A DNA stretch of 62,749 nt from a virus (taxonomy: Duplodnaviria; Caudoviricetes): the IMG/VR virus record IMGVR_UViG_3300042520_000420, positions 1-62,749 of that record, one strand, 5' to 3'. Made by a program: the position numbers and the translations under genes. The notes beneath the pieces were generated by a model. It saw only the letters and a program-made list of their open reading frames with translations, was not told the origin of the DNA and ran no database searches. Positions within the stretch are counted from its first letter, which is position 1, and each line of letters opens with the position of its first letter. This document shows positions 26,820-48,092 of this stretch, piece by piece.

Positions 26820-28538
26820 TCATGCCGCCAACTTGATCTGCTTGAATGTTGCAGTGCCAAGATCAGTCACGTTGCTGATCATGATGCCTTGACCATAGGT
26901 GCTGGTAACGTCATTGCAGATGCCGATACCGATTGTGGTGATGCCAAGATTGCGACCAGCGTCAGCCTGTTGCTTGACTGCATTGCGGTTACCGTCACCG
27001 TCAGTGATAACAAAGCAGATCTTGCGCTCTTCACGGCGACCCAGCAACATATTGTGGGCATAGCGCAGGGCAAAGAAGTCATTGGTAGCACCACCATTAC
27101 CAACCGCCTGCAAGAGCGGCAGAGTGCGCTTGTAAGGGGCGCTGAATGGCTTGATGATGGACGCCTCGTCACCGAATGTCAGCACGGCGGTTGACACATT
27201 GGCGGCACTGAGGGTCTCCAGCAAGGCGGCACAAGTCTGCACTGCTGGGCTGATGTTGCTTGCTTTTATGTCATAACCAAACATGGAGTTGGAAACATCC
27301 AACACGATCACCACTGCAGAGTCGATGCCCTCGACCTCTTCACGGCGTTTAAACAGATTGACGTTGCCGATGGGGATTGTCTTCAGTGTGCGAGAGTTGA
27401 TCTTGCCTGCACGTTGGTTGGGGTTGTAGTTGCTGGTATCGCTGTTGTCGAACAGGCGCTTGACTTCAAAGCGCAGGCGAGCAGGCACTGCATTGGTCAA
27501 GGTGATACGCTGATTCATGCCGACATGAGCGCCATCTTTTTTCAGCGATGAATGCTCGGCGTATGTACCGTGCGTTGCTTGACCCTTGGGTGCTTGGTTG
27601 CTGGGCTCGACCAAGACTGCCTGAGTCTTGGAAGTGATGGGCTTGGCAGTGCCTGCATCAGGGGCATCAGCGCCATTGTCGGGGTCACCCTTGGGGTCAC
27701 CCTTACCTTGACCCTGATCGGGGCTTGTAGGGGCATTCTGACCGTCCTCAGAGGCATCACCTTGACCAGCATCACCTTGGGCTTGACCGTCTTGTGGCTG
27801 ACCAGCGTCACCATTTTGGAACTGACCGTCTTGATCACCAGCGTCACCATCTTGGGGTTGATCGGGTTGATCAAGCTTGGGTGCATCGGCGGTCTTGGGC
27901 AGTTGGTTGTAAACCCACTCAGCGATGGCGAGGGTATCGGCGCTGGACTTTGCAACCATTGTGCGTTTAAACGCTTCATCGAATATGGGCTTGAGTCCCA
28001 GTGCGACAGGCACTTTTTGAGTCGCATGGCGGCGGCAGTACACGGCGAGGGCAAAGGGGTATTGGGCGGGGTTAGTCCAATCGACCTTGGCGGCAAGGGC
28101 TTGATCGACCATGTCATCGATCAGAGCGGTCAGCGTGGCAGTGATGTTGCCCAGCAAGTTGGCGGCGATCCCAGCGTGTTCGATGTATGCGTCCTCGACT
28201 GCATTGTGCAGGCGTTGAACGTAACCGATGGATGCTTGCACGTTGAAGTCGGTGTACTTGGAATGAAGCAATTCATGGATGATGAAACCCACATACTTGG
28301 TCATGGTTGCTTGGGTGATCACTGCATCATCTTGAATGTTGGCGACCTTGACCACGCCCTTGGCGTTGACGCAAGCGGTTTGTGTGCCTACGCACCAAAT
28401 CAGGCGTGGGTGTTTCACGCCCAGTGCTTGAGCGGCATGGTGAAAGAACGAGTCGATGGCAGAGCGGAACTGGTAGCCACGCACCGAGCGGCGACCAAGC
28501 ATTTGCTGAATTGTGGTGATGGGTTTAGCGGTTGTCAT
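26820..28538 (-). CDS. CobT-like vWA protein with an N-terminal HExxH domain and acidic low-complexity linker
   Basis: IHELLH...NAVEDAYIE; MIDAS LDVSNSM, GATND, VITDG; start ATG 28538 after GAGG. Confidence 0.8.
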   Translation of the reverse strand: MTTAKPITTIQQMLGRRSVRGYQFRSAIDSFFHHAAQALGVKHPRLIWCVGTQTACVNAKGVVKVANIQDDAVITQATMTKYVGFIIHELLHSKYTDFNVQASIGYVQRLHNAVEDAYIEHAGIAANLLGNITATLTALIDDMVDQALAAKVDWTNPAQYPFALAVYCRRHATQKVPVALGLKPIFDEAFKRTMVAKSSADTLAIAEWVYNQLPKTADAPKLDQPDQPQDGDAGDQDGQFQNGDAGQPQDGQAQGDAGQGDASEDGQNAPTSPDQGQGKGDPKGDPDNGADAPDAGTAKPITSKTQAVLVEPSNQAPKGQATHGTYAEHSSLKKDGAHVGMNQRITLTNAVPARLRFEVKRLFDNSDTSNYNPNQRAGKINSRTLKTIPIGNVNLFKRREEVEGIDSAVVIVLDVSNSMFGYDIKASNISPAVQTCAALLETLSAANVSTAVLTFGDEASIIKPFSAPYKRTLPLLQAVGNGGATNDFFALRYAHNMLLGRREERKICFVITDGDGNRNAVKQQADAGRNLGITTIGIGICNDVTSTYGQGIMISNVTDLGTATFKQIKLAA

Positions 28539-28545
28539 GTTGACC

Positions 28546-29991
28546 TCAGATGTTGTTGGCGATGAATGACTGATCGATGCAAGCTTGCTTGATCGCTTCA
28601 ATGGCGGCGTGGGACTCGGCGGGTTGCTTGGCGACAATGGTTGACTCCCATGCCTCGTTGACGCTCATCATGTCGAGTGAGCGAATGAATGCGAGAACGC
28701 ATCGAATCGATGGGGCATCGACAACATCACCAGTGGCGACCTTGGTGCGAGCGACATGGACTGCTTTAAGAACGTGTCTCGCCAACTCGGGCTTGCAGTT
28801 TGTGTGGTTGACCACTGCCTCGACTTCTTTTTCAAGGGGTAAGAAGTCAAAGTGAACGACTCGGGCAAAGCGATCAACGAGGGATGAATTCATTTGACGA
28901 GTGTCGGCATACCGACCCGAGTCATCACCATTGCCCAGCGTGTTGTCGGCAGTGAAGACCAATACCCCAAGGGCTCGTCTCCACACTGCACCGCCGTAGG
29001 AAACGGCACTGCGAGGCTCTAGGAAGCCATTCAAGGGGGCTAAGTTACCAGCGGCGGCATTGGTGACCTCGTCCAACAGAATGACCGTTGATGGGCTTGT
29101 AAAGGCGGTCAGGAAGTCCCTTGGTTGGAACTGAGTGCCTGTGGTTGGATCGTACCCAGTGTCACCGAGGTAATGGGCAGGCTCAGTGTGCTTTTCAAAG
29201 TTGATGCGAACAAAATTGCGACCAGTGCGAGCGGCAAACTGCTGGGCGGTCATGGTCTTGCCTGTACCCTTGTCACCGCCGAACCATACATTCTCACCAG
29301 TGCGCTGGGATTGAATCAAGTGGCGCAGGATGGTCTCAGTCCAAATGAACGTGTCATCGATGGCGGGTGCGTTGGCGTGATCCCAAATGTCAACTATCAC
29401 AGGCTTGCCCTTGGCATCTCTCAGGTCAATGCCGAATACATCGATGCAGGGCTTGGATGCCACGACAGTGGCGGCGACCAGTGACCCGATAACGTCTTGA
29501 GCCCCAGCGTCCTCGACTGCCTGCTTGAACGGTTTAAACGCATCAGCGACTGCTTGGGTGACTGCAAGGTTGACCGAGGCGGGATCGACCACTGCCTGCT
29601 TGGTGATGGCATCGACTGACTGCTTGAGTTGATCGATGCGACCATTCGCAATGAACAGGGCATCATCCAGTTCTTTAGCCTGCTCATGGTTTTGCTGGGC
29701 GATGGTGACCGAGGTCTTAGCCTGCTTGAGGGCATCAAGGGCGACTGACTCAGCCCGAGATGCGGCTTGGGCGGCGGCATCAACCTTTGCAGTGTCGTGC
29801 GATGCGGCGGCGGGTGCTTGGGCGATGCAGTCATCGATGCTGATTTTGCCTGCCACTACCAAGTCAGCGAGGCGCTCGGCGGCTTGGGCTTTGCTGACTG
29901 CCATGTGGTCAGAGATGTACTTTTTGTAGGCTTGGTTCACTGCCACTGTGGGCAGGGTGAAGATCTTGTCGAAAATGATTTGTCTGCTCAT
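28546..29991 (-). CDS. MoxR/CbbQ/CobS-type AAA+ ATPase
   Basis: GGDKGTGKT, ILLDEV, ADNTLGNGD...Y...NSSLVDRF. Confidence 0.88.
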   Translation of the reverse strand: MSRQIIFDKIFTLPTVAVNQAYKKYISDHMAVSKAQAAERLADLVVAGKISIDDCIAQAPAAASHDTAKVDAAAQAASRAESVALDALKQAKTSVTIAQQNHEQAKELDDALFIANGRIDQLKQSVDAITKQAVVDPASVNLAVTQAVADAFKPFKQAVEDAGAQDVIGSLVAATVVASKPCIDVFGIDLRDAKGKPVIVDIWDHANAPAIDDTFIWTETILRHLIQSQRTGENVWFGGDKGTGKTMTAQQFAARTGRNFVRINFEKHTEPAHYLGDTGYDPTTGTQFQPRDFLTAFTSPSTVILLDEVTNAAAGNLAPLNGFLEPRSAVSYGGAVWRRALGVLVFTADNTLGNGDDSGRYADTRQMNSSLVDRFARVVHFDFLPLEKEVEAVVNHTNCKPELARHVLKAVHVARTKVATGDVVDAPSIRCVLAFIRSLDMMSVNEAWESTIVAKQPAESHAAIEAIKQACIDQSFIANNI

Positions 29992-34195: not shown

Positions 34196-36586
34196 ATGGC
34201 AACCAATATGGACAAGAGTGTTTATCAGTCTCCCGCAGGAATTGCTGGGTTGGAAGAAGATCCTATTGAGATAGAGATTGAGGATCCTGAGTCTGTCTCT
34301 ATTAGCATGGGTGGGGTAGAGATCATCCTTGAGCCCGGCAAAGAATATGACGGCGATTTTGAGTCCAACCTTGCAGAAGTATTGGATGAGGGAGTCCTTG
34401 CGCAGATTGCCTCTGACCTGTGCGAGTTAGTGGATGCTGACGTTAATTCCCGCAAAGACTGGGCAGAAACCTTTGTCAAAGGCTTGGAAGTGCTGGGTCT
34501 ACAGTATGAAGAGCGCACCCAGCCTTGGAATGGAGCCTGTGGCGTTTATTCAACAATCCTGACAGAAGCTGCCATTCGATTCCAATCAGAGTCCATTATG
34601 GAGACCTTCCCAGCACAAGGCCCAGTAAAGACTCAGATTATTGGCGCAGTTACCAAGATGAAAGAAGAGGCGGCAGAGCGGGTTCGCACTGACATGAACT
34701 ACCGCCTGACCGAGCAAATGCCGGAATACCGCCCAGAACATGAGCGTCTTTTGTATTCTCTTGGATTGGCGGGAGCAGCCTTTAAGAAGGTTTACTATGA
34801 CCCCGCACTTGGTCGGGAGGTGTCAATGTTCATCCCAGCCGAGGATGTCATTGTTCCTTATGGAGCTTCAAATCTGAACAACGCAGAACGTGTTACACAT
34901 GTGATGCGAAAGACAGAGAATGAGATTAAAAAGCTACAGGTAGCAGGCTTTTACAGAGATATTGAGCTTGGCGAGCCAGTCAACATTCTTTCTGATATTG
35001 AAAAGAAAAAGGCAGAACAGCAAGGTTACAAAACCACAGATGACAACCGCTATCAAATCTTTGAAATCCACACAGAACTGGATATTGAAGGCATGGAAGA
35101 TGTTGACGAGGACGGAGAGCCAAGTGGAATCGCCCTGCCTTATGTGGTCACAATTGACCGTGGAACCAATGAGGTTCTGTCTATTTACCGCAACTACAAC
35201 GCAGATGATGATAAAAAACTCAAACGTCAACATTTTGTGGATTACTGCTATGTACCCGGCTTTGGCTTCTACGGCTTAGGTTTAATCCATATTATTGGCG
35301 GGTATGCCCGTGCTGGCACTGCCCTGATTCGTCAATTGGTGGACGCAGGAACTCTTTCTAACCTGCCCGGAGGTCTTAAGTCCCGTGGTATGAGGGTTAA
35401 AGGGGATGACACCCCAATCGCCCCCGGAGAGTTCAGGGATGTGGATGTTCCGTCAGGAACCATCAAAGACAACGTAATGACGTTGCCCTACAAAGAACCC
35501 AGCGCTACATTGCTGACACTGCTCAACCAGATAACTGAAGAAGGCAGACGCTTAGGATCTATCGGGGAAATGAAGATATCTGACATGAGTGCAAATGCAC
35601 CTGTCGGGACAACTCTAGCCCTGTTAGAGCGCCAGCTCAAAACCATGAGTGCTGTACAGGCCCGTGTACATAACTCCATGAAACAGGAGTTTAAACTGCT
35701 CAAGAACATCATCAGGGACTATGCTCCAGATGATTATGAATACGACCCAGAAAGCGGAAATCGCCAAGCAAAGCAGGCAGATTACGACATTGTTGAGGTT
35801 ATCCCTGTCAGCGATCCCAATAGCTCCACAATGGCTCAAAGGATCATGCAGTACCAAGCTGTTATTCAGTTGGCAAGCCAAGCCCCGCAAATCTATGACT
35901 TGCCAAACTTGCACCGCCAAATGATTGAGGTTCTGGGCGTTCGCAATGCTGATAAGTTAATACCCACTTCGGACGATCAAACACCCAAAGATCCTGTTAG
36001 CGAAAACATGGCATTCCTTAATGGGAAGCCAACAAAAGCGTTTATCTACCAAGACCACGATGCTCACATCATGGCGCACCAATCGTTTATGCAGGATCCA
36101 ATGATTGCGGCGACCATTGGTCAAAACCCAATGGCGCAAAAGATTCAAGCATCGGCTATGGCTCACATTGCAGAACACTTGGCGTTTAAATACCGCAAGA
36201 ACGTGGAAGAACAGATTGGCGTTCCAATCCCTGCGCCAGATTCAAAATTGCCAGAAGATGTCGAAGTCGAGTTGTCTCGCTTGGTTGCCCAAGGAGCCGC
36301 ACAGCTTTTACAGGCAAATCAAGCCCAAGCCCAACAGGCTCAGGCTCAACAGCAAGCTCAAGACCCCCTTATCCAAATGCAACAAGCAGAACTACAAATC
36401 AAGCAGGCAGATGTGCAGCGCAAGGCTCAGAAAGACCAGACAGATGCGCAGATTGCGCAAGCCAAGCTACAGCTTGAGGAGCAAAGGCTGCAAGGAACTC
36501 AGCAGATTGAGCAGCAACGAATCCAGTCTCAGGAAAAGCAGGCAAACCAAAAAGTGCAAGTTGATTTGTTTAAACGGAAACAATGA
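34196..36586 (+). CDS. Portal protein
   Basis: 796 aa directly after terL; GAAFKKVYYD, GFYGLGL; Q-rich C-terminal barrel as in P22-like portals. Confidence 0.88.
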   Translation: MATNMDKSVYQSPAGIAGLEEDPIEIEIEDPESVSISMGGVEIILEPGKEYDGDFESNLAEVLDEGVLAQIASDLCELVDADVNSRKDWAETFVKGLEVLGLQYEERTQPWNGACGVYSTILTEAAIRFQSESIMETFPAQGPVKTQIIGAVTKMKEEAAERVRTDMNYRLTEQMPEYRPEHERLLYSLGLAGAAFKKVYYDPALGREVSMFIPAEDVIVPYGASNLNNAERVTHVMRKTENEIKKLQVAGFYRDIELGEPVNILSDIEKKKAEQQGYKTTDDNRYQIFEIHTELDIEGMEDVDEDGEPSGIALPYVVTIDRGTNEVLSIYRNYNADDDKKLKRQHFVDYCYVPGFGFYGLGLIHIIGGYARAGTALIRQLVDAGTLSNLPGGLKSRGMRVKGDDTPIAPGEFRDVDVPSGTIKDNVMTLPYKEPSATLLTLLNQITEEGRRLGSIGEMKISDMSANAPVGTTLALLERQLKTMSAVQARVHNSMKQEFKLLKNIIRDYAPDDYEYDPESGNRQAKQADYDIVEVIPVSDPNSSTMAQRIMQYQAVIQLASQAPQIYDLPNLHRQMIEVLGVRNADKLIPTSDDQTPKDPVSENMAFLNGKPTKAFIYQDHDAHIMAHQSFMQDPMIAATIGQNPMAQKIQASAMAHIAEHLAFKYRKNVEEQIGVPIPAPDSKLPEDVEVELSRLVAQGAAQLLQANQAQAQQAQAQQQAQDPLIQMQQAELQIKQADVQRKAQKDQTDAQIAQAKLQLEEQRLQGTQQIEQQRIQSQEKQANQKVQVDLFKRKQ

Positions 36587-36777
36587 TGAACGAATTGGAA
36601 TATGTTTTAAAACAATTGAAGGAACGAGGCGAAATTGTTTCTGAAAGGATTGGTACGGGCGGAGCTAAAGACTACGCCGAGTATCGAGAGCTGTGCGGGC
36701 AAATTCAGGGTCTACTGTTTGCACAGTCCGTTGTAGTTGACCTTGTTCGAAAAATGGAGAGATACGAAGATGACTGA
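36583..36777 (+). CDS. Conserved small head-module protein
   Basis: DYAEYRELCGQIQGL; between portal and GroES. Confidence 0.65.
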   Translation: MMNELEYVLKQLKERGEIVSERIGTGGAKDYAEYRELCGQIQGLLFAQSVVVDLVRKMERYEDD

Positions 36778-37168
36778 ATTCGATATTCAGGCGGTAGATC
36801 TGTCGGGTATTTTGAATACCTCGGCGGAGGAAAAGGCAAAACAAGTGCCAGATCCAGCAACCTTTTACCTCTTATGTGTTTTACCAGAGGTAGAAGAAGA
36901 GTATGAAAGCGGTCTTGCAAAGGCTGGGCAAACCATGCATTACGAAGAAATACTGTCGCCAGTGTTGTTCGTTGTGAAAATGGGGCCTGATGCGTTTAAA
37001 GACACCAAGCGGTTTCCGTCTGGGCCTTCATGCAAAACTGGGGATTTCGTCCTTGTCCGACCCAATACTGGGACTCGGATCAAGATTCATGGCAAAGAAT
37101 TTCGCCTGATCAACGATGACAGCGTAGAAGCTGTTGTTCAAGATCCTCGTGGAATAACCCGTGCGTAA
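36770..37168 (+). CDS. groES: GroES-like co-chaperonin
   Basis: VVKMGPDA...GDFVL...GTRIKIHGKEFRLINDDSVEAVV. Confidence 0.8.
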   Translation: MTEFDIQAVDLSGILNTSAEEKAKQVPDPATFYLLCVLPEVEEEYESGLAKAGQTMHYEEILSPVLFVVKMGPDAFKDTKRFPSGPSCKTGDFVLVRPNTGTRIKIHGKEFRLINDDSVEAVVQDPRGITRA

Positions 37169-37179
37169 GGGAAAAAATC

Positions 37180-38133
37180 ATGTCCGATAACGAGAAAACT
37201 GAATTTGAATTTCAGGACTCTGAGATTGAGCAGCCAAAACGTGGGCTTCTTATGACCGAACCAGAGCCGGAAATTGAAATTGTTGATGACACGCCTGAAG
37301 ATGATCGTGGGCGAACCCCCATGACATCACCTCCTCAAGAGCCAACCGATGAGGAATTGGAGTCATATTCAAAGCGAGACCGCAACAAAATTCGTGAATT
37401 TACTAAGGGTTATCACGAAGAACGCAGAGCAAAAGAGGCAGCTCTTAGAGAAAAGGAAGAGGCTATTCGCATAGCCCAAACCGTTTTTGAAGAGAATAAG
37501 CGCCTCAAAGGCACTGTAAACACCAGTCAATCTGCTCTATTAGAGCAGGCTAAAAAAGTGGTTGCACAAGAGTTGGAAGAGGCTCGGCGCAAATACAAGT
37601 CAGCCTATGAATCAGGGGACTCCGATGCTTTAGTCCAAGCTCAGGAAGAAATGACCACGGCTAAGATGAAGGTGGAGCGTGTAAACAATTTTAAGCCAGC
37701 CCCTTTACAGGAGCAGGAAAATGTTGTACAAACCAAGCACCTGCAAGCAGAACCCGCTCCAGATCCTAAAGCTGAGAATTGGCGAAAACAAAATTCTTGG
37801 TGGGGATCGGATAAGGAAATGACCAGTTTTGCGCTTGGAGTGCATGACAAGCTGGTTAATGACGAGGGTGTTGATCCTCAAAGTGACGATTACTATTTGC
37901 GCTTAAATGGTAGGTTACGCCAAGTATTCCCAGATAAGTTTGAGTCTGGTGAATCCGATGATTCGAAATCTCATCGCCCTAAATCAAGCGTTGTTGCTTC
38001 TGCAAGCAGAAGTGTTGCGCCCAGAAAAATCACACTTTCCCAGTCAGAAGTCAACATTGCCAAGCGGCTTGGAGTTCCATTGGAACAATATGCTCGTGAG
38101 GTAGCGGTTTTAAGGAGAAATCAAAATGGATGA
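37180..38133 (+). CDS. Putative capsid scaffolding protein
   Basis: Acidic coiled-coil; C-terminal IAKRLGVPLEQYA; upstream of the capsid genes. Confidence 0.7.
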   Translation: MSDNEKTEFEFQDSEIEQPKRGLLMTEPEPEIEIVDDTPEDDRGRTPMTSPPQEPTDEELESYSKRDRNKIREFTKGYHEERRAKEAALREKEEAIRIAQTVFEENKRLKGTVNTSQSALLEQAKKVVAQELEEARRKYKSAYESGDSDALVQAQEEMTTAKMKVERVNNFKPAPLQEQENVVQTKHLQAEPAPDPKAENWRKQNSWWGSDKEMTSFALGVHDKLVNDEGVDPQSDDYYLRLNGRLRQVFPDKFESGESDDSKSHRPKSSVVASASRSVAPRKITLSQSEVNIAKRLGVPLEQYAREVAVLRRNQNG

Positions 38134-39201: not shown

Positions 39202-40113
39202 ATGGCAATTTCTCGTGCGCAACTACTGAAAGAACTGCTTCCCGGTTTGAACGCTTTGTTTGGCTTGGAATACAAGACTTACGGCGAGCAACACAAAGAG
39301 ATCTACGAAACCGAGACCTCAGAGCGTTCTTTTGAAGAAGAAACCAAGCTGTCAGGCTTTTCTGCTGCACCCGTCAAGAACGAAGGCTCCGCCATCGCTT
39401 ATGACAATGCACAAGAAGCATGGACTGCTCGTTACAACCACGAAACCATCGCAATGGGCTTCTCCATCACTGAAGAAGCTGTGGAAGACAATCTGTATGA
39501 CAGCTTGTCCAGCCGCTATACCAAAGCATTGGCTCGTGCGATGTCTTACACCAAGCAGGTCAAGGCCGCTTTTGTGTTGAACAATGCGTTCACCACTACA
39601 GTGACCTACGGTGACGGCGTTACCTTGTGTAGCACCGCCCACCCCCTGATCTCTGGTGGCACAAACAGCAACCGCCCAACTACTGGCGCTGACTTGAATG
39701 AAACTTCGTTGGAAAACGCTGTCATTCAAATCGCAGGCTGGACAGATGAGCGTGGCTTGCTGATTGCTGCCAAGCCTAAGAAATTGGTTGTGCCTCCCGC
39801 ACTCCAGTTCGTTGCTACTCGTTTGTTGGAAACCGAACTCCGTGTCGGAACAGCTGACAACGACATCAACGCCATTAAGAACAACGGCTCCATCCCCGGC
39901 GGATACACTGTCAATAACTATTTGACAGACACAAACGCTTGGTTCTTGTTGACTGACGTTCCTAACGGTCTGAAGCACTTCATCCGTACCCCCATGTCTA
40001 CCGGCATGGACGGCGACTTTGATACCGGCAACGTCCGTTACAAAGCCCGTGAGCGTTATAGCTTCGGCGTATCTGATCCTTTGGGCATTTTCGGGTCTCC
40101 CGGATCGTCCTAA
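39202..40113 (+). CDS. Major capsid protein
   Basis: MAISRAQLLKELLPGLNALFGLEY...KKLVVPPAL...DFDTGNVRYKARERYSFG; followed by a terminator. Confidence 0.92.
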   Translation: MAISRAQLLKELLPGLNALFGLEYKTYGEQHKEIYETETSERSFEEETKLSGFSAAPVKNEGSAIAYDNAQEAWTARYNHETIAMGFSITEEAVEDNLYDSLSSRYTKALARAMSYTKQVKAAFVLNNAFTTTVTYGDGVTLCSTAHPLISGGTNSNRPTTGADLNETSLENAVIQIAGWTDERGLLIAAKPKKLVVPPALQFVATRLLETELRVGTADNDINAIKNNGSIPGGYTVNNYLTDTNAWFLLTDVPNGLKHFIRTPMSTGMDGDFDTGNVRYKARERYSFGVSDPLGIFGSPGSS

Positions 40114-41039: not shown

Positions 41040-41538
41040 CGTAAAACAAGGACACTTAAACCAAAGCGGGTTTTTTGTGCTTGGACGCAACCGTGTAAAG
41101 GGTGTTTCTTTTTATGGTGGCAGTGGCACTCTTGTATTGTTTGATACAACCACAGCTCCAGTAACTTCAAGTGTTAGTTATGGTCGTAGCAGCACAACCG
41201 TAACAATAACCAAGACAGCCCACGGTTTGTCTACGGGTGCTGTTGTTGGAATTCACTTTGACGGCGGTTCTGGTGGCGCTGCTACTGATGGCAATTACAG
41301 TATTACTAGAGTAGACGCTGATACATTTACGCTAACCGACATCAATACTGGGAATATTACAGGTTCTCCGGCAGCGGTTTATGTTAGCGGCGCAAATCGT
41401 TGGCTGTTAACCTATGAAACGCACTCATCAGATGAGTTCCAGAATGCTCCACTTATTCCCGGCGAAGGTGTATTGGCAGCAAATGGAATTTACGCCTATA
41501 TGAATGCAATTGACGCAGCGCAGATTTACTATGGCTGA
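41023..41538 (+). CDS. Structural protein with a beta-barrel insert
   Basis: TVTITKTAHGLSTG...DGNYSITRVDADTFT; IPGEGVL...GIY. Confidence 0.6.
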   Translation: MAMQYDVKQGHLNQSGFFVLGRNRVKGVSFYGGSGTLVLFDTTTAPVTSSVSYGRSSTTVTITKTAHGLSTGAVVGIHFDGGSGGAATDGNYSITRVDADTFTLTDINTGNITGSPAAVYVSGANRWLLTYETHSSDEFQNAPLIPGEGVLAANGIYAYMNAIDAAQIYYG

Positions 41539-42274
41539 CAAGAGCTTTAACTTAATTGGTCGCAAGCTAATGATTGCGATCCCTTGTTACGATGGCAAAG
41601 TAAACATCAGAACTGCTTTTGCCATTGCTGAACTTGTGCCTAAGTTAGACAAGATGGGTGTACGACTAAGCCTCGTACACATATCTGGTTGCTCAATCAT
41701 TACCAAGGCTCGCAATAAGCTGGTTCGTAACTTCATGGAGTCAGATTGCACAGACTTTTTGTTTGTGGACTCTGATGTTGTGATTAATACGGATGCTGTT
41801 ACTCGCTTGCTTGCGCTGTCATCAGACAAAGATGTTGTGGCTGGATCGTACCCACGCAGATCAAAAGACACCAAATTTTTCTTGGATTTTTATCTAGACG
41901 AAGATGGTCAGTTAGAGTTTGACAATCATGGATTGATGCGTGTTGAAAGTGTTTCCACTGGCTTCATGCTTGTGCGCCGCCATGTGTTTGAACACATGAT
42001 TGAGAAGCATCCTGAGTGGCAATACAAAGGCGATGGTGACGGCGAAACAGAACACGCCATCTTTGACTTTATGATTCTTGATGGTCAATATATTGGCGAA
42101 GACTATGCTTTCTGTTTGAGAGCAAGGACTGAAGGATTTAAGATTTACTTAGATCCTATGATTAGTCTTCCCCATATTGGCACAGAAGAATTTACACGGG
42201 ACTTTGAGAAAGATGTTTTGAGGCCACTTCTTAAGGATCGTTCAAAACCTCAATTGAAAGTTGCAAATGGCTAG
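41531..42274 (+). CDS. GT-A fold glycosyltransferase
   Basis: IAIPCY...ARNKLV...FLFVDSD...TGFMLVRR...GEDYAFC...HIG. Confidence 0.82.
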   Translation: MADKSFNLIGRKLMIAIPCYDGKVNIRTAFAIAELVPKLDKMGVRLSLVHISGCSIITKARNKLVRNFMESDCTDFLFVDSDVVINTDAVTRLLALSSDKDVVAGSYPRRSKDTKFFLDFYLDEDGQLEFDNHGLMRVESVSTGFMLVRRHVFEHMIEKHPEWQYKGDGDGETEHAIFDFMILDGQYIGEDYAFCLRARTEGFKIYLDPMISLPHIGTEEFTRDFEKDVLRPLLKDRSKPQLKVANG

Positions 42275-42578
42275 TCCAGCATGGCAGAGAAAAGAAGGCA
42301 AGAGCGAGAAGGGCGGATTGAACGCCAAAGGGCGAGCCTCTGCCAAGAAACAAGGGATGAATCTGAAGCCTCCACAGCCAGAGGGCGGCAAACGGCGAGA
42401 CTCTTTCTGCGCCCGTATGGAAGGCATGAAGAAGAAATTGACGAGCGAAAAGACCGCCAAGGATCCAGATTCGAGGATTAACAAAAGCCTTCGTGCATGG
42501 AATTGCGCTGATGGCGGATATGTAACTCAAGCCGATGGTTGTGCTACTAAAGGCAAAACGAAGGGTAGGTTTGTTTAA
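42267..42578 (+). CDS. Small basic protein (DUF6321-like) with a C-terminal ADGCATKGKT tag
   Basis: AWQRKEGK...GGLNAKGRAS...RRDSFCARM. Confidence 0.7.
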   Translation: MASPAWQRKEGKSEKGGLNAKGRASAKKQGMNLKPPQPEGGKRRDSFCARMEGMKKKLTSEKTAKDPDSRINKSLRAWNCADGGYVTQADGCATKGKTKGRFV

Positions 42579-43058
42579 ATGGCAAAAATTGGGAAAAAAC
42601 CAACCGATGACCAGCTTCTTGAGGGTGGCGGTGGCGGTGGCGGATATAGCTCTTCCATCAAAGGGACAAAATGGAGCAGTATGCCCTCTTTCAAGGGAAG
42701 CTCCAGCACTTTAGACGACCTTAAAAAATTAACAGCAAAGCCAACCAAGGCAAAAGGCGCTGCAAAGCGAGCCTTTGAGATGGCGCAAGATCGTGCTGTA
42801 AGCCGCACGGTTGCCAGAGGCGCAGGCGCTTCCGCTCTTGCCGCAGGTGCAAAATCTATGACGGGTAAAGATGCCACTGCTTCCGATTCTTCTAAATCAG
42901 ATGATTACGAAGATATGGGTGGCGATGTAAGCTTGGACTATTCAAATCCTACAGGCGTTGCTGGCAGGGGAATGAAGGGCGGCGGTAAAGTCTCTAGCGC
43001 CTCCAAGCGAGCAGATGGTATAGCCCAAAAAGGAAAAACAAAAGGACGGATGTTGTAA
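42579..43058 (+). CDS. Low-complexity protein with a C-terminal RADGIAQKGKT tag
   Basis: Shared C-terminal motif. Confidence 0.65.
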   Translation: MAKIGKKPTDDQLLEGGGGGGGYSSSIKGTKWSSMPSFKGSSSTLDDLKKLTAKPTKAKGAAKRAFEMAQDRAVSRTVARGAGASALAAGAKSMTGKDATASDSSKSDDYEDMGGDVSLDYSNPTGVAGRGMKGGGKVSSASKRADGIAQKGKTKGRML

Positions 43059-43297
43059 TGGACATCAACACCATTTGGTCTGCTGGCTTATCTGTCCTGA
43101 TGGGTGGACTGTGGTTTTTCATTCGTGAAAAATTTGATGAACTAAATCGTTTAAACATATTACTTAACCGAACACGAGAGGAAATAGCCCGTGATTACGC
43201 AACTAACGCAGAAGTGCAAAGAATTACTGACCACATTGACCAGCGTTTTAACAAGCTGGAAGCAAAAATTGACCAACTTATTCAAGCGGGGCGATAA
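43058..43297 (+). CDS. Small membrane-anchored coiled-coil protein
   Basis: N-terminal hydrophobic helix; LLNRTREEIA. Confidence 0.65.
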   Translation: MDINTIWSAGLSVLMGGLWFFIREKFDELNRLNILLNRTREEIARDYATNAEVQRITDHIDQRFNKLEAKIDQLIQAGR

Positions 43298-43299
43298 AG

Positions 43300-43785
43300 A
43301 TGCCCAGCACAAGTAAGAAGCAACACAATTTCATGGCTGCGGTGGCGAACAACCCATCTTTTGCCAAGAAAGTGGGAGTCCCACAGTCTGTGGGTAAAGA
43401 TTTCAGCAAGGCCGACAAAGGCAAAACGTTTAAACAAGGTGGTGACATGAAAGAATCTAAAGCAATGGTTAAAAAAGAAATTGGCTTTATGAAAGCCAAG
43501 GGCGCTCCTAAGTCTATGGTCAAGCATGAGATGGCTGAGATGAAGGGTGCAAAAAAGATGGCTGGCGGCGGTATGCCTATGGTTATGAAAGACGGACAAA
43601 AAGTTCCAGCTTTTGCCGCAGACGGCAAGGGCAAAATGGCTCACGGTGGTGTAGCTAAAAAAATGATGGGTGGCGGTATGGCCTACGCCAAGGGTGGATC
43701 TGCATCTAGTCGTGCTGACGGTATTGCTCGTAAAGGCAAAACCCAAGGTACTCAAGTAAAAATGAATCGTGGCGGTAAATGCTAA
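43300..43785 (+). CDS. K/G/M-rich protein with MxxGG repeats and a RADGIA tag
   Basis: MPSTSKKQHNFMAAVA...; shared motifs. Confidence 0.7.
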   Translation: MPSTSKKQHNFMAAVANNPSFAKKVGVPQSVGKDFSKADKGKTFKQGGDMKESKAMVKKEIGFMKAKGAPKSMVKHEMAEMKGAKKMAGGGMPMVMKDGQKVPAFAADGKGKMAHGGVAKKMMGGGMAYAKGGSASSRADGIARKGKTQGTQVKMNRGGKC

Positions 43786-43795
43786 GAGGTGAATC

Positions 43796-44692
43796 ATGGC
43801 TAAAACTATGAAGAAAAAACGTTTTGACGAAGGCGGAGTCCTTCGGACTCGCTCTGATGATGAGATTGGGGACACCGATCCACGCACTGGTATCGTCACA
43901 CCCGGAAGCTTTGACCGCCGTAGAGCGCAGGGTGAAAAAAATCTTCAGGCCTTTAAGAGCTTTTTTGGCATGGGATCCGCCAAACCAAGTGCTGATGTCG
44001 ATCAAGGGTCTGTGCCTACTGCTTCCACATACTTTGATCGCCGCAGAGAAGCACCGACTCCAGCTCTTGTGTCTCCAGCCGCTGATTCTGCAATGAATCA
44101 AAGTATTCGTGAGGCTATTTCAAAGCGCCCAACCAGCATGTCTCCCAATACTTCTCAGGGTCAAGACCGCTCGGTTACGCCAAGCGTTATACCCTCATCT
44201 CCAGCCAACCCACCTGCTCCTAAGAAAAAGCCACCTACTCCCAAACCGTCAGTCCAGCCATCAAAAGGCGGATCAGGTGGCGGCAGAGGGCCAACAGCTC
44301 AACAGCTACAAGATTACGCCAAACAAAAGGATGCTCAACGTAAGGCTGATTACGACAAAGCAAACAAAGAGGCGGCAACTCCAGCGGGTAAGGCCAAGCG
44401 CAGTGAGCGTGAGAAAGCTGAAGCCATCGTCACTGATACAGATGTAATGCCAATTCCCGGCGGAAGCGCAATATCTGCCGCAGCAAAGCTTGCTAAGAAA
44501 TTGGCTCAAATGGGCAAAAAGGCAAAATCGACAGCTCCTTTTATGAAGGAGATTGGCAACGAGCCTTTGAAGCTTGGGATGAATCGGGGTGGCTCTGTCA
44601 AGAAGATGGCTTCTGGTGGGTTAACCGGAAATGCATCTAAACGTGCTGATGGTATTGCCCAGCGTGGCAGAACCAAATGCAAAACTTATTGA
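43796..44692 (+). CDS. Low-complexity protein with a C-terminal RADGIA tag
   Basis: Shared motifs; GAGG RBS. Confidence 0.65.
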   Translation: MAKTMKKKRFDEGGVLRTRSDDEIGDTDPRTGIVTPGSFDRRRAQGEKNLQAFKSFFGMGSAKPSADVDQGSVPTASTYFDRRREAPTPALVSPAADSAMNQSIREAISKRPTSMSPNTSQGQDRSVTPSVIPSSPANPPAPKKKPPTPKPSVQPSKGGSGGGRGPTAQQLQDYAKQKDAQRKADYDKANKEAATPAGKAKRSEREKAEAIVTDTDVMPIPGGSAISAAAKLAKKLAQMGKKAKSTAPFMKEIGNEPLKLGMNRGGSVKKMASGGLTGNASKRADGIAQRGRTKCKTY

Positions 44693-44700
44693 GGTGAACC

Positions 44701-45105
44701 ATGAAATATGCTTATACTGCGTCCCCCGGAAAAACATCAGACGACAAGTTTGAAATTGAAAAGCTAAAAAAAGGTGAAGCGGAACTTCGTGAAAGCGATG
44801 TACCTAACCGTAAAGCTATGCGTGTCATGCAAGGCAATAGTTTGTCTGGATTTATGAATCCTAAAGCCGGAGCGGGTCGTGGCAAACAAGGCGGCCCTAC
44901 AGCCAAAGAACTTCAAGAAGAGCCAATGACCGCAGGTCAGAAGCAGTCTATGCAAGAAGCAAAAGACGAGGAAGCGTATCAGAAGAGAAAGACTGCGCCC
45001 ACAACCAAGACGGAAATGGGCAAGGCATTTGCTAAAGGCGGCTCGGCTTCCAGCCGTGCAGACGGTATTGCCCAGCGTGGCAAGACTCGTGGGATGATGT
45101 GCTAA
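44701..45105 (+). CDS. Small protein with a C-terminal RADGIA tag
   Basis: FAKGGSASSRADGIAQRGKTRG. Confidence 0.65.
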   Translation: MKYAYTASPGKTSDDKFEIEKLKKGEAELRESDVPNRKAMRVMQGNSLSGFMNPKAGAGRGKQGGPTAKELQEEPMTAGQKQSMQEAKDEEAYQKRKTAPTTKTEMGKAFAKGGSASSRADGIAQRGKTRGMMC

Positions 45106-45395
45106 TGATGCCGAGCAGAGGCATGGGAGCCGTTAATCCCGACAAAATCAAAAAGCCAAGGATCATCCATAAAAAGGATGGGAACTTCCCCGTTGAAGTT
45201 TTTAAAGAGGGCGGAGAAGTAAAGTCTAAGGTAAATGAAGCTGGTAACTACACGAAACCCAGTTTGCGTAAAAAGATTGTGTCTCAGGTCAAGGCGGCGG
45301 CAACTCATGGCACGGGAGCTGGTCAGTGGTCGGCAAGAAAAGCACAGTTGGTGGCAAAGAAATACAAGGCAGCAGGCGGAGGTTACAAAGATTGA
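45105..45395 (+). CDS. Small basic protein
   Basis: NYTKPSLRK...GQWSARKAQL...YKAAGGGY. Confidence 0.65.
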   Translation: MMPSRGMGAVNPDKIKKPRIIHKKDGNFPVEVFKEGGEVKSKVNEAGNYTKPSLRKKIVSQVKAAATHGTGAGQWSARKAQLVAKKYKAAGGGYKD

Positions 45396-45625
45396 AAGCG
45401 CCGCAGACTTCTCTTAAAAACTGGGGCGACCAGAAATGGCGCACTAAGTCGGGGAAGCCTTCGTCAAAAACAGGTGAGAGGTATCTCCCTGAAGCGGCTA
45501 TCAAGTCTTTGTCTCCTGCTGAATATGCTGCGACAACCAAAGCCAAGCGTAAGGGTAAGGCGGCGGGTAAGCAGTTTGTAGCCCAGCCTAAAGGTATTGC
45601 AAAGAAAACAGCAGGATTTAGATAA
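45392..45625 (+). CDS. Small basic protein (DUF5872-like)
   Basis: QTSLKNWGDQKWRTKSGKPS...TGERYLP; TTG start. Confidence 0.65.
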   Translation: MKAPQTSLKNWGDQKWRTKSGKPSSKTGERYLPEAAIKSLSPAEYAATTKAKRKGKAAGKQFVAQPKGIAKKTAGFR

Positions 45626-46560
45626 TGGCATACACCACCGGCACATCAATCTTTGATATGGACTTTACGGAGATCGCCGAAGAATCGTGGGAACGTGCTG
45701 GGCGTGAAATGCGTAGTGGTTATGACTTGCGTACAGCCCGCAGGTCAATGAACCTAATGACCATTGAGTGGCAAAACCGTGGCATTAACATGTGGACAAT
45801 TGAACAGGGAACTATTGACCTTGTTCAGGGTTTAAACACCTACCCGCTTCCTACTGACACGATTGATCTGATGGAGCATGTAATTCGCACCGGTCAGGCA
45901 AATTCTTCTACTCAAGCCGATCTAAGCATTACCCGTATCAGCGTTTCTACCTATGCCACCATTCCAAACAAATTAACCCAAGCAAGACCAATTCAAGTTT
46001 TTATCCAAAGGTTGTCTGGTCAGACCAGTATGACGCAGTTGACCTTGAATGGGTCGATTAACGCCACAGCCACAACTATCACATTAAATTCAACAATTGG
46101 ATTGGCTGCTGCTGGGTACATTCAATTGGACTCAGAGATCATCTATTACCAGTACATCACTGGAAATGTTTTAAATGTCTGCTCTCGTGCGCAAGCAAAT
46201 ACAGTTGCAGCGTCACACACCACTAGCACCTCTGTTTATGTTCCTCAACTTCCTGCTATAACCGTTTGGCCCACGCCTGACGGCTCAACAAGCTACCAAT
46301 TCGTATATTGGCGATTGCGTAGAGTGCAGGACGCTGGTTCAGGCGTAACCACAGCCGACATGAATTTTCGCTTCCTGCCATGCCTTGTAGCTGGCTTGGC
46401 TTACTACATAGCCATGAAAGTGCCAGAGCTTGTGACACGCATGGATATGCTGAAAATGGCATACGAAGAGCAATTCCAATTGGCGGCAGGCGAGGACAGG
46501 GAAAAGGCTTCCAGCTTGTTTGTTCCTCGCCAGCAATTCATTGGTGGAGGATCTCCCTAA
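45625..46560 (+). CDS. Head-tail adaptor/head completion protein
   Basis: TARRSMNL...WQNRGINMWT...WPTPD...RFLPCLVAGLAYY. Confidence 0.7.
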   Translation: MAYTTGTSIFDMDFTEIAEESWERAGREMRSGYDLRTARRSMNLMTIEWQNRGINMWTIEQGTIDLVQGLNTYPLPTDTIDLMEHVIRTGQANSSTQADLSITRISVSTYATIPNKLTQARPIQVFIQRLSGQTSMTQLTLNGSINATATTITLNSTIGLAAAGYIQLDSEIIYYQYITGNVLNVCSRAQANTVAASHTTSTSVYVPQLPAITVWPTPDGSTSYQFVYWRLRRVQDAGSGVTTADMNFRFLPCLVAGLAYYIAMKVPELVTRMDMLKMAYEEQFQLAAGEDREKASSLFVPRQQFIGGGSP

Positions 46561-46976
46561 TGGCTAATATGTTCTCGTCAGGCAAGTTCAGCATTGCAAT
46601 GTGTGACCGTTGTGGTCAGCAGTTCAAGCTGAAGCAGCTTAAGTACGAGGTCATTAAAACCAAGCTTTACCAATTGAAGGTTTGCAGTGAATGCTGGGAT
46701 CCTGATCACCCTCAATTGCAGCTAGGTATGTATCCAGTAGAGGATCCGCAGGCAGTCAGGGAGCCACGCAATGACAGCACATATGTAGCCGCTGGTTTAA
46801 ACGGATTGCAGGATTCGCCTACTGAGGCTGACAATGGATTCCCAACAGGCGGATCACGAGATATTCAATGGGGCTGGTATCCAGTCGGAGGATCCAAGAG
46901 TTTTGATGCGGTTTTAACGCCCAACTACTTGGTTGGAACCGCTGACGTTGGCAATGTAACTGTAAGCATCACTTAG
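46560..46976 (+). CDS. Zn-finger protein of the neck module
   Basis: CDRCG...VCSECWDPDHPQL. Confidence 0.7.
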   Translation: MANMFSSGKFSIAMCDRCGQQFKLKQLKYEVIKTKLYQLKVCSECWDPDHPQLQLGMYPVEDPQAVREPRNDSTYVAAGLNGLQDSPTEADNGFPTGGSRDIQWGWYPVGGSKSFDAVLTPNYLVGTADVGNVTVSIT

Positions 46977-46985
46977 GAGTGGAAA

Positions 46986-47171
46986 ATGAAAAAATCGGAA
47001 GTAAAGCGCATCGCTGATGTTGAAGCTGGCAAGGCTGTCAAAGGCCATGAAAAGTCTATGCACGGTGTAAAAAAGATGGCAAAAGGCGGCAAAACAAACG
47101 AAAATATGCGCATGTATGGTCGTGGCATGGCTAAGGTGATCAATCAACGCACATCTTCAAAGGGTGGCTAA
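46986..47171 (+). CDS. Small basic protein
   Basis: HEKSMHG...MAKGG...GRGMAK. Confidence 0.6.
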   Translation: MKKSEVKRIADVEAGKAVKGHEKSMHGVKKMAKGGKTNENMRMYGRGMAKVINQRTSSKGG

Positions 47172-47172
47172 T

Positions 47173-47442
47173 ATGGCAAAATTCAGCAAAAAGATAATGG
47201 GCAAAGAAGTTGGCGATGCCAGCGTTTACGCCGAGCCTCATACTATGGATGGCAAGCCGCTCACAAAAACACGACAGAAGGATCCAAACATGCTTACAGC
47301 ATTGGAGTCTGGTGTGCGGTCTGCCGCTAAAAGAGTGAGCGATGGAGACCCCGGCGCTGATGATGTAAAGACAACTGGTATCAAGATCCGTGGTACTGGC
47401 GCAGCCACCAAAGGCGTGATGGCTAGAGGCCCAATGGCATGA
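47173..47442 (+). CDS. Small protein with a C-terminal RGTGAATKG motif
   Basis: KTTGIKIRGTGAATKG. Confidence 0.6.
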   Translation: MAKFSKKIMGKEVGDASVYAEPHTMDGKPLTKTRQKDPNMLTALESGVRSAAKRVSDGDPGADDVKTTGIKIRGTGAATKGVMARGPMA

Positions 47443-48092
47443 CTTACAACGAATTGGTCATTGCAGTGAGTGACTACTGTGAGAACACGTTTCCCACGGT
47501 GGACATGAACATAATGATTAAGCAAGCTGAACAGCGTATATATAACACTGTTCAGATAGCGAATCTGCGCAAGAACATGACTGGTACTATTACCGCTGGT
47601 AATCCGTATCTGTCTGCGCCTGATGATTTCTTGTCTGCTTATTCGTTGGCGGTGATTAGTGGAAGCGATTATCTTTATTTGTTGAATAAGGATGTGAACT
47701 TCATGCGTGAGGCGTATCCAAGCACGGCAGCGGCCTATCGTGGCAAGCCTAAGCACTATGCTATTTTTGGCCCACAATCAAATGCCGTTACCGAGTTATC
47801 GTTTCTTCTTGGCCCAACACCAGACACAACGTATTCAGTAGAGCTGCACTTCTACTATTACCCTGAGTCCATTGTTACAGCCAGCACCACTTGGCTTGGG
47901 GATAACTTTGACTCTGCTCTTTTGAATGGAACGATGGTTGAAGCTATTCGCTACATGAAGGGTGAACCAGATATGGTCAAGTTTTACCAAGACATGTATG
48001 TGCAGTCTATTACCTTGCTCAAGAACTTGGGTGATGGCAAGCAACGTGCAGATGCTTATCGTGATGGTCAAGTTCGGATTCAGGTAAATTAA
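47439..48092 (+). CDS. Adaptor/tail tubular A-like protein
   Basis: MTYNEL...AEQRIYN...GKPKHYA...GPTPD...ALLNG. Confidence 0.7.
   Translation: MTYNELVIAVSDYCENTFPTVDMNIMIKQAEQRIYNTVQIANLRKNMTGTITAGNPYLSAPDDFLSAYSLAVISGSDYLYLLNKDVNFMREAYPSTAAAYRGKPKHYAIFGPQSNAVTELSFLLGPTPDTTYSVELHFYYYPESIVTASTTWLGDNFDSALLNGTMVEAIRYMKGEPDMVKFYQDMYVQSITLLKNLGDGKQRADAYRDGQVRIQVN

Follow-up and report, generated by a model that had tools for sequence, protein, structure and literature searches.

Background

The capsid targeting sequence (CTS) of bacteriophage T4 is an N-terminal peptide which is directed to the scaffolding core and later cut off by the gp21 protease, and the internal proteins IPI-III that carry it are small, basic and unrelated, with only this short peptide in common. 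Encapsulins, which have an HK97-fold shell protein, take up diverse enzymes carrying a short C-terminal cargo-loading peptide with a Gly/Ser/Leu-type consensus. Excerpts of PMC3012670 state that the T4 CTS also loads foreign proteins. Here we describe a C-terminal module of about 29 residues (the tag), known from sequence alone, which is shared by five neighbouring plus-strand open reading frames (ORFs A to E, 42267-45105) with unrelated bodies in the viral record IMGVR_UViG_3300042520_000420; the window analysed is the whole record of 62,749 bp, with a CheckV completeness of 100%. An initial annotation of this DNA had proposed a portable address which loads basic, disordered passengers into the phage head or docks them on a common partner.

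As with the T4 internal proteins, the tagged proteins are small, basic and unrelated apart from a short peptide at one end, the locus changes fast between close relatives as in the T-even phages, and the peptide is portable: 70 tagged bodies fell into 33 unrelated clusters, the isoelectric points (pI) of the five window proteins are 9.7-10.3, and the gene set has changed relative to that of the closest relative (L120). The tag differs from the CTS in being C-terminal (140 of the 150 best profile matches and all five ORFs) with a fixed five-residue end, and its bodies are predicted to be disordered, whereas those of T4 are folded inhibitors. A search of the complete genome for a gp21-type protease gave no match to Peptidase_S77 (PF03420) or S78 (PF04586) at E≤1. 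With encapsulins the locus shares a short C-terminal peptide on diverse proteins and an HK97-fold shell protein (Phage_capsid_4), and binding of the tag to this capsid protein is putative; however, the tag lacks the Gly/Ser/Leu-type consensus and its bodies are free of recognisable domains, unlike the enzymes that are encapsulin cargo. P22-type scaffolding proteins likewise have a conserved basic C-terminal element on a head-module protein that is otherwise variable and mostly unstructured, but in contrast to their coat-binding helix-turn-helix the tag is not predicted to be helical and occurs on one to five different proteins per genome. By analogy, the tag may work like a terminal address of the CTS or encapsulin type, but belongs to neither family.

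Five unrelated proteins with one C-terminal peptide

The regular expression A[DG]G[ICAVL]A.[KR]G, run on the six-frame translation of the 62,749 bp window, found exactly five tag sites. Extended with [KR]T it gave five sites, compared to none in 200 mononucleotide and 200 trinucleotide-block shuffles and an analytic expectation of 3.7e-5. The window tails follow the consensus [MYF][KA][KS]GG-x-V-SSAS-x-RADG[IC]A-x-[RK]GKT[RK]G[RK]M[VC], and all five have the GG in front of the tag, as the initial annotation had described for its xxGG motif. The five sites and tails that it listed on dissimilar bodies were all recovered, with the amendment that in ORF C the tag is not terminal and is followed by a 13-residue extension. 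Blastp between the five bodies found no pair at E<1e-3 and MAFFT aligned the tails only, so the five are not full-length paralogs. Within the 16-codon tag cores, the same codon was used at identical residues in 3/13 (B-C), 4/13 (B-D and B-E), 5/13 (C-E), 7/12 (D-E) and 8/10 (C-D) cases, and the longest exact nucleotide match between tagged ORFs is the previously reported 19-mer (44651/45064), with all others at most 12 nt. With mostly different codons and only short shared words, it is thus the peptide that is conserved, as had been suggested, and the tails do not stem from a recent DNA duplication. The same annotation had pointed out a variant RGTGAATKG at 47173; the variant exists but the position was wrong, as it forms the C-terminus of the ORF at 47164-47442 and represents a second, related tag class.

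The five ORFs lie in a hypervariable island between the capsid and adaptor genes (42267-47442). ORF A (42267-42578, ATG start at 42267, upstream TTG at 42261) ends ..YVTQADGCATKGKTKGRFV, with the tag at approximately 42507-42575 (ADGGYVTQADGCATKGKTKGRFV) and a Cys in its core; it matches Pfam DUF6321 (1.4e-18, 67.7 bits versus a cut-off of 28.5) over residues 13-80, leaving the tag outside the domain. ORF B (42579-43058, tail ..SSASKRADGIAQKGKTKGRML) is a 159 amino acid (aa) disordered protein without Pfam, PHROG or NCBIfam match, which has a canonical tag without Cys at 42969-43055 and an N-terminal MAKIGKKPTDDQLLEGGG module that relatives from metagenomes carry on other bodies. ORF C (43300-43785, tail ..SASSRADGIARKGKTQGTQVKMNRGGKC) consists of a conserved N-terminal three-helix domain (phrog_16759, 3.5e-21 on residues 1-45), a disordered linker and the tag at 43684-43782, the latter including the ..VKMxxGGKC extension that defines a recurrent subclass, and its body type is the largest of the body clusters (16/70). 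ORF D (43796-44692, tail ..NASKRADGIAQRGRTKCKTY) is a low-complexity protein of 298 aa with an N-terminal KKKRFDEGG and a tag at 44603-44689 with Cys at -4, for which family searches against Pfam, PHROG and NCBIfam gave no match, and ORF E (44701-45105, tail ..SASSRADGIAQRGKTRGMMC) is a disordered protein of 134 aa with the tag at 45016-45102 and a C-terminal Cys. All are on the plus strand.

Anatomy of the tag

Position frequencies were determined on 140 cluster-representative tails from the best 150 profile matches, and the resulting percentages are inflated by ranking because these 150 are the best-scoring matches. The module has 29 residues and then reaches the C-terminus: positions 1-6 are K49, M48/Y29/F14, K46/A44, K58/S34, G96 and G99; positions 7-13 are K50/S35, V95, S90, S99, A99, S100 and K69/S21; positions 14-20 are R100, A94, D100, G100, I59/C41, A98 and Q66; and positions 21-29 are R66/K34, G100, K99, T100, R58/K42, G99, R59/K40, M73 and V54/C26 (all in %). 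The GKT lies exactly five residues before the C-terminus in 140/150 best matches and in 43/78 tagged ORFs of related loci, most of the remainder of which have the same recurrent ..VKMxxGGxC extension as ORF C. A φ-x-x-GG motif (φ, hydrophobic) is present in 146/150 tagged proteins, frequently in several copies and in some cases directly at the N-terminus (MKKxKRYxEGG).

The tag usually contains exactly one Cys, located either at the I/C core position (-12) or within the last five residues. Of the 140 tails 57 have it in the core only, 36 in the tail only, two in both places and 45 in neither (Fisher p = 1.6e-8, a value that is inflated by shared ancestry, with the pattern nonetheless spanning unrelated bodies), and the same trend was seen in two other sets. 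The bodies contain only 0.0-0.1% Cys, and four of the five window tags carry one. This mutually exclusive single Cys in Cys-poor proteins suggests a defined bound conformation in which the alternative positions would be neighbours, and perhaps a covalent or metal-mediated latch. Single conserved Cys residues are found in the portal (C115, 69/69), p150 (C97, 100/103) and GroES (C99, 91/91), and there is none in the capsid protein; a role for the portal, p150 or GroES Cys as disulfide partner of the tag is suggestive only.

In the alignment of 43 tails the invariant residues are exactly G22, G27 and T29, with K28 at 90% or more (99-100% in the 140 tails), and together they fit the Walker A pattern GxxxxGK[ST], with RGRT (ORF D) and KGHT as exceptions at the Walker lysine. 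This is a pattern match only: the tag has neither a strand or helix next to it nor a Walker B motif, some of its variants lack the Lys, its chain ends five residues after the Thr, the residues before the motif are SSASKRAD, and no NTPase Pfam match was found in the window proteins or in the best 150 tagged proteins. The tag is therefore not a P-loop NTPase.

The second tag class, ..[VI]RGxG[IAC]Ax[KRQ]G.., is found in some relatives, either in place of the first or next to it. Class-2 tails read ..KVRGAGIAxxGVRPCKMV in five loci (L040, L048, L059, L060 and L069) and ..RGVGAAIRGHKFIGVK and ..RGGGAAVRGMGFKGVF in gp32 and gp51 of Pelagibacter phage HTVC023P, and in the window ORF F (47164-47442, plus strand), a basic protein of 92 aa, ends with the class-2 variant ..IKIRGTGAATKGVMARGPMA. 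The lake phage DSL-LC04 has N-terminal MAGRGMGCATRGG and MASRGMG forms, and the ..RGMG[AC].. motif is N-terminal both there and in ORF h of the window.

Spread and portability of the tag

When the 45 C-terminal residues of ORF E were used in a word-index search, 2,340 of 2,590 candidate proteins matched at E≤10, and among the 120 matches listed the C-terminal half of ORF E was shared by proteins with at least five different N-termini, one of which was that of ORF B. A profile made from 43 distinct tails was then searched against 1.84 billion cluster representatives; 8,626 of them (50% identity clusters), with highly diverse bodies, matched at E≤1e-3, and 2,149 did so at the stricter limit of E≤1e-10. 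The tag thereby defines a very large unannotated protein family, as neither Pfam, PHROG and NCBIfam models nor PDB chains match it; we found no prior description of it, and DUF6321 and DUF3008 were not mentioned in the main texts of the literature searched.

The proposed portability of the module was borne out by the 33 unrelated clusters among the 70 tagged bodies, which came from 35 sources with capsid proteins at least 84% identical, by its attachment to DUF6321, and by tandem and N-terminal copies. The DUF6321 domain is tagged in ORF A, whereas orthologs in relatives end ..RAWNC and are untagged; double-tag and tag-dominated proteins occur among P0121-P0126, P0136 and P0147; and N-terminal copies are confined to a minor 62-aa family. 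The closest relative L120, in which the glycosyltransferase gene is 90.8% identical at the nucleotide level, contains four tagged genes and shares just the C-type one with the window. Nucleotide homology to L120 (8792-9586) ends at 42505, just before the tag of ORF A, and resumes at 42996, at the start of the tag of ORF B. Since the homology blocks begin and end at the edges of the tag-coding DNA, the tag boundaries coincide with recombination junctions of a cassette-like island.

The bodies of the best 150 tagged proteins have a composition that is typical of disordered proteins (K 12%, A 11%, G 9%, E 8%, with W, H and C close to zero), are net positive in 117/143 and net negative in 11 cases, and have a median charge of +0.03 to +0.05 per residue. 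A membrane location was considered and rejected, with transmembrane-like segments in only 4/150 and 0/78 bodies. The models likewise predict disorder, in line with the earlier description of the bodies as basic and disordered. For ORF B the ESM Atlas model has a predicted local distance difference test score (pLDDT) of 0.50 and a predicted template modelling score (pTM) of 0.20, and AlphaFold2 (AF2) with a 50-row alignment gave ORF E a mean pLDDT of 53.5 and pTM of 0.15, with no residue at 70 or above and no secondary structure in the tag. In the AF2 model of ORF C there are helices at residues 6-38 (pLDDT 75-91), and the tag region has a pLDDT of 39-53 and no secondary structure. This N-terminal domain of ORF C recurs in uncharacterised proteins of jumbo phages, and Foldseek with the ORF C model against viral models returned uncharacterised proteins only.

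The tag follows one phage lineage

Next to the island, the window genome codes for a primase/helicase, a large terminase, a 796-aa portal, a weak GroES homolog, an HK97-type major capsid protein, two SU10-type adaptor paralogs, a 1,304-aa tail spike-like protein and a giant protein of 3,223 aa. The major capsid protein (303 aa, 39202-40113, plus strand; Pfam Phage_capsid_4 1.4e-13 and Mu-like_gpT, PHROG major head protein) anchors the island upstream, and is 74% identical to its counterpart in Planktothrix phage Pag-Yong1 / Synechococcus phage MinM2, 66% to those of the Pelagibacter phages HTVC023P and HTVC027P and lake phage DSL-LC04, and 58% to those of the Roseobacter phages CRP-901 and CRP-902. 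The window and these phages also have the head-gene order of portal, GroES, three unknown genes and capsid in common, and from these identities and this shared order it follows that the window phage is a freshwater podovirus of the HTVC023P-like group. This group is among the most abundant in the ocean according to excerpts of PMC10149686, and GroES is given as one of its 13 core genes in excerpts of PMC9599517. The lineage is very abundant in metagenomes, with at least 8,000 variants of its capsid protein at E≤1e-10 and 90% clustering, and more than 600 matching IMG/VR stretches.

All 78 ORFs with a tag according to the strict regular expression in the 81 sources scanned are on the capsid strand. 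In the 48 loci that span the region from the capsid gene to the adaptor 1 gene (45625-46560, plus strand; Pfam SU10_adaptor 1e-9), which is the downstream anchor of the island and adjoins tags in relatives, each tag is located inside this gap or just past adaptor 1; seven of the 48 loci had been chosen for having a tag. The gap varies from 1.3 to 7.8 kb, and contains no strict-expression tag in 12 loci, one in seven, two in 20, three in seven, four in one and five in one, the window being the maximum. With a broadened expression a tag was found in 44/48 loci and the other four have visibly related tails, and hence the system looks universal in the lineage. A search for internal promoter or terminator signals in the island found none above shuffle background.

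Retrieval with the tag only gave 77 new IMG/VR loci, all of which have this capsid protein (77-94% identity) and/or adaptor 1 (43-83%). In 185,579 species genomes there were 21 tag loci, all on contigs of metagenome-assembled genomes (MAGs) with mutually inconsistent taxonomy; the structural genes of the lineage are present at 15 of these loci, the remaining six contigs are 1.0-8.6 kb long, and we read them as mis-binned phage contigs. No tag was present in the scanned stretch of Caulobacter phage RW and Alcaligenes phage QDWS535, which have capsid proteins of 41-48% identity. As far as sampled, on the best 80 loci of each scan, the tag is found only with the capsid and adaptor genes of this lineage. 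Across the tag-bearing relatives the capsid protein is 77-94% identical, compared to 60-81% for the portal, 36-72% for the scaffold-like protein p317 and 43-83% for the adaptors (GroES, portal and p317 at 34196-38133 and the adaptors at 45625-48092 together 36-85%), and it is thus under unusually strong constraint. A further homolog search with the capsid protein returned only relatives of at least 91% identity, which did not deepen the alignment.

A proposed docking peptide and its alternatives

The tag is real, selected as a peptide, portable and fixed to the C-terminus, and occurs on bodies predicted to be disordered in a structural operon. Taken together, the strong purifying selection, fixed C-terminal position, predicted disorder of the proteins on their own, free choice of body, one to five copies per genome and at times two per chain, late operon and restriction to one lineage make a docking peptide the simplest model, and we tentatively favour the reading, to which we give somewhat less than even weight, that the tag folds on binding and joins fast-turnover disordered proteins to a conserved virion component. 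The module would be a short linear motif, disordered when alone and folded when bound, which attaches any body fused to it to one conserved component of the particle, such as the procapsid or capsid, the portal barrel or another head-proximal protein, and a fast-changing repertoire of disordered polypeptides would thereby be built into or onto the virion. Candidate receptors are the highly conserved capsid protein, the portal with its long Gln-rich C-terminal extension and invariant single Cys, p150 with an invariant single Cys of its own, and the acidic conserved N-terminus of p317. A predicted complex of the capsid protein (85-row alignment) and a 34-residue tail (43 rows), run without controls, had ipSAE values of 0.00 and 0.00, which speaks neither for nor against such binding.

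Several observations weigh against a docking role in the virion. We infer the placement of the tagged proteins in the virion, like the partner of the tag, the location inside or outside and the role of the bodies, from sequence comparisons. The conservation of the tag is overstated by the ranking mentioned above, and more divergent tags elsewhere could have escaped the scans. A tblastn search with the 45-aa tail against 50,697 phage records gave no match at E≤1, which we consider to be a sensitivity failure, as the regular expression does find the tag in Pag-Yong1 (308-aa Pag-Yong1/MinM2 protein UMO75986.1). The passengers have no recognisable folded domain, as a Pfam match was obtained for only one of the best 150 tagged proteins and is probably a chimeric call, and long tagged proteins (four matches among 18 candidates) had no precomputed Pfam domain, which is weak evidence. 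There are tag-only or near tag-only proteins of 33-48 aa without any cargo (P0136, P0126, P0147 and P0163), some of which are perhaps truncated gene calls. The tag motif strings were not found in a biological sense in the literature texts searched, and neither the capsid protein nor the tag profile had a relevant match among PDB sequences, the sole matches being designed 'Bagel' repeats at the KxxGG part. In the model podoviruses T7 and P22 the genes for ejection proteins lie after the tail genes, and genes located between capsid and adaptor more often code for decoration or completion proteins. The passengers are not enzymes, and the 'cargo' looks more like disordered polypeptide than like functional passengers; given this lack of folded or enzymatic domains and the tag-only mini-proteins, cargo loading may be the wrong picture and the tag could itself be the working part.

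Such a working part could be a phosphate or nucleic-acid anchor which clamps proteins onto DNA and has no protein receptor, an idea that we consider rather unlikely, as we do its corollary that the family consists of DNA-associated counter-ion or condensing proteins, which would be packaged along with the DNA or act on it while it replicates. Phosphate binding is known for short P-loop-like peptides, and the Walker A-like invariants, the net charge of +5 of the tag, the predominance of positive bodies (117/143), the high pI of the window proteins (9.7-10.3) and the existence of tag-only and double-tag mini-proteins would all make sense for such an anchor. However, the RGRT and KGHT variants break the Walker lysine, class-2 tails retain GxxxxG but lose K-T, there is no hydrophobic strand before or helix after the motif and the chain ends five residues later, AF2 shows no secondary structure at this position, and the charge of the bodies is small. 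Moreover, generic DNA binding leaves the invariant Asp, the Ser-Ser-Ala-Ser, the fixed distance to the C-terminus and the restriction to one capsid lineage unexplained. Another reading is a decoration on the outside of the capsid, where the tag would hold variable, mildly cationic disordered 'hair' affecting adsorption, aggregation or stability; this is a variant of the docking reading that differs in topology only, with the outside location being conjectural, and we rate it as improbable. The gap between capsid or accessory genes and adaptor genes is the usual site of decoration and cement genes, DSL-LC04 has a 'cement protein' annotated directly after its capsid gene, surface exposure would account for hypervariable bodies, the conserved capsid fits a many-copy receptor common to one to five competing tagged proteins, and double tags could bridge neighbouring subunits; set against this are the protease sensitivity of exposed disordered polypeptides and the absence of Ig-like or other adhesin domains from the best 150 tagged proteins.

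The receptor might also be sought in the host, with the tag as a short linear motif for a hub, for instance a chaperonin or an unfoldase/protease adaptor with specificity for basic C-termini that have a hydrophobic end, and with the tagged proteins modulating this hub or being processed by it, but the chances of this seem slim to us. C-terminal recognition signals such as the MuA-type ClpX signal are known, and the free basic-basic-hydrophobic-hydrophobic C-terminus of the tag is strongly constrained (140/150). A GroES homolog is a core gene of the lineage itself (PMC9599517, in excerpt), and the loop SGLAKAGQT of the window GroES superficially resembles DGIAQRGKT. Yet the loop consensus, ESG[LI]-φ-K-[AS]-x-Q-T, has a hydrophobic residue at the invariant Ala of the tag and no conserved second Gly, and mimicry of the GroES mobile loop was rejected when the resemblance was lost across about 90 relatives. 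The tag also follows the phage structural lineage, its genes are in the late structural operon and not among early genes, and no host link emerges from the MAG bins, as these are taxonomically inconsistent. Least probable, and in our view very unlikely, is that the module or the preceding φ-x-x-GG is a processing or modification signal, either as a protease site after GG or with SSAS as a sequon for a glycosyltransferase. GG-directed processing of viral core proteins is known, and the adenovirus protease works with pVIc, a basic C-terminal peptide in which a single Cys is functional; the basic disordered core proteins of adenovirus likewise have hydrophobic-x-x-GG motifs, as do 146/150 tagged proteins, although the register of the hydrophobic residue differs and a third of the tags have no Cys. 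A peptidase family search of the complete genome revealed no adenain-like or other cysteine protease, and with no match to Peptidase_S78, S77, C48, C39, C5 or ClpP at E≤1, all six families being negative, processing by a phage protease was rejected; a cleavage site alone would also not need some 20 conserved downstream residues. The end of a glycosyltransferase-like gene (41504-42274, plus strand; phrog_1574 4.3e-37, weak GT2-type Pfam matches below cut-off) does overlap the start of ORF A, but such a gene is present in only 17/48 island-spanning relatives and missing from 27/44 tag-bearing loci; the tag is therefore independent of it and the sequon idea was rejected.

Returning to the docking peptide, it is possible, if doubtful, that one of the most abundant freshwater phage lineages uses a natural modular C-terminal capsid-loading tag, which may be Cys-latched, to package or display an arms-race repertoire of disordered proteins. 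If so, it would be a podovirus counterpart of the T4 CTS and internal protein system, its more than 8,000 clusters would make up a family of dark matter, and its 29 residues could serve directly as a handle with which foreign polypeptides are loaded into HK97-fold capsids. Should the tag be a virion address, the island would add a case beyond T4 in which hypervariable virion proteins carry a terminal tag, with possible insight into what disordered proteins do in phage particles, be it counter-defence, ejection or the management of charge. Even if its target is DNA or a host hub, the short linear motif remains strikingly conserved and has a one-cysteine rule that needs explaining. No paper on virion proteomics of Pag-Yong1, MinM2 or HTVC023P was found in the texts searched.

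Other genes of the island and the head module

Between the tagged genes, ORF g (43058-43297, plus strand; phrog_462/7885, approximately 9e-6) codes for an untagged 79-aa protein with a hydrophobic N-terminus and a coiled coil, which is conserved inside the island (orthologs in L015, L018, L120 and DSL-LC04); the metagenome protein P0241 has a g-like N-terminus fused to the tag. Downstream of ORF E are two small basic proteins on the plus strand, ORF h (45099-45395; phrog_17747 2.7e-24) and the conserved, untagged ORF i (45392-45625; phrog_14910 4.3e-36), which probably starts at the TTG at 45392 and of which relatives start MKAPQ... ORF h has an N-terminal ..SRGMGA.. resembling class-2 tags and a ..FKEGGEV.. 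motif, and its relatives start M..SRGMGA[IVM]. The h and i region (45099-45625) has nucleotide-level relatives in HMO-2011-type phages (L001, 6258-6844 and 8380-8619) and Roseobacter CRP phages, where they are located upstream of the terminase and outside the head-tail gap. ORF j (46986-47171, plus strand, 61 aa) is an ortholog of the 62-aa family with the N-terminal tag, which reads MAYTRSADGIAKKGKTEG..GGKTNADMKxMGRNLAKIAAQKRG in relatives (nine loci) and has decayed to ..KRIADVEAGKAVKGHEK..GGKTNENMRMYGRGMAKV in the window. A second short motif, [KR]-[YF]-x-[ED/K]-G-G-x-V, is present at the extreme N-terminus of many island proteins (e.g. MKKxKRYxEGG and MRRYYKSGG; in the window near 43796-43850) and also on untagged DUF6321 proteins of some relatives. 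In the form [KR][YF]x[ED]GG it was found at the N-terminus of 15/150 and 8/78 tagged proteins.

In the head module, the GroES (Cpn10)-like gene (36737-37168) scores 17.9 bits with Pfam, below the cut-off of 21.1, but is annotated as co-chaperonin in all cultured relatives and has an invariant Cys99. It is followed by p317 (37180-38133), a 317-aa scaffold-like protein with phrog_28737 as its only family match, a conserved acidic N-terminal ..EIVDDTP..D, a charged helical middle and a C-terminal ..VVAPATRS..IAKRLGVPLE.YAKQVA.., which is the window's own P22-scaffold-like protein with a conserved C-terminus. Homology of the tag to this C-terminus (VSSASKR vs VVASASRS) was considered and rejected, as most relatives read VVAPATRS. 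Between the gene for adaptor 1 and that for its paralog adaptor 2 (47439-48092, plus strand; Pfam SU10_adaptor 2.2e-19) is a 138-aa protein (46560-46976) in which CxxC..CxxC is invariant in 110-111/111 relatives, and which is likely a zinc ribbon in the head-tail joining region.

Further away from the island, the region 848-1591 codes for a Gly-rich protein of 247 aa without PHROG match and with a C-terminal stretch ..GDGVSDSIPARIG..LADGEFVVPARIVSELGNGSTEAGARKLYAMMDRV.., which the initial annotation had named as a candidate partner of the tag. For the giant 3,223-aa ORF (4042-13713) all PHROG matches are of unknown function (phrog_21376, 9854 and 18222), and its product is perhaps a large protein that is part of the virion or is ejected. 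Finally, two ORFs of 605 and 481 aa on the minus strand (26820-29991) match PHROGs for cobalamin/porphyrin biosynthesis auxiliary genes (CobT/CobS-like ATPase), and the local G+C content of this region is up to 0.53-0.55.

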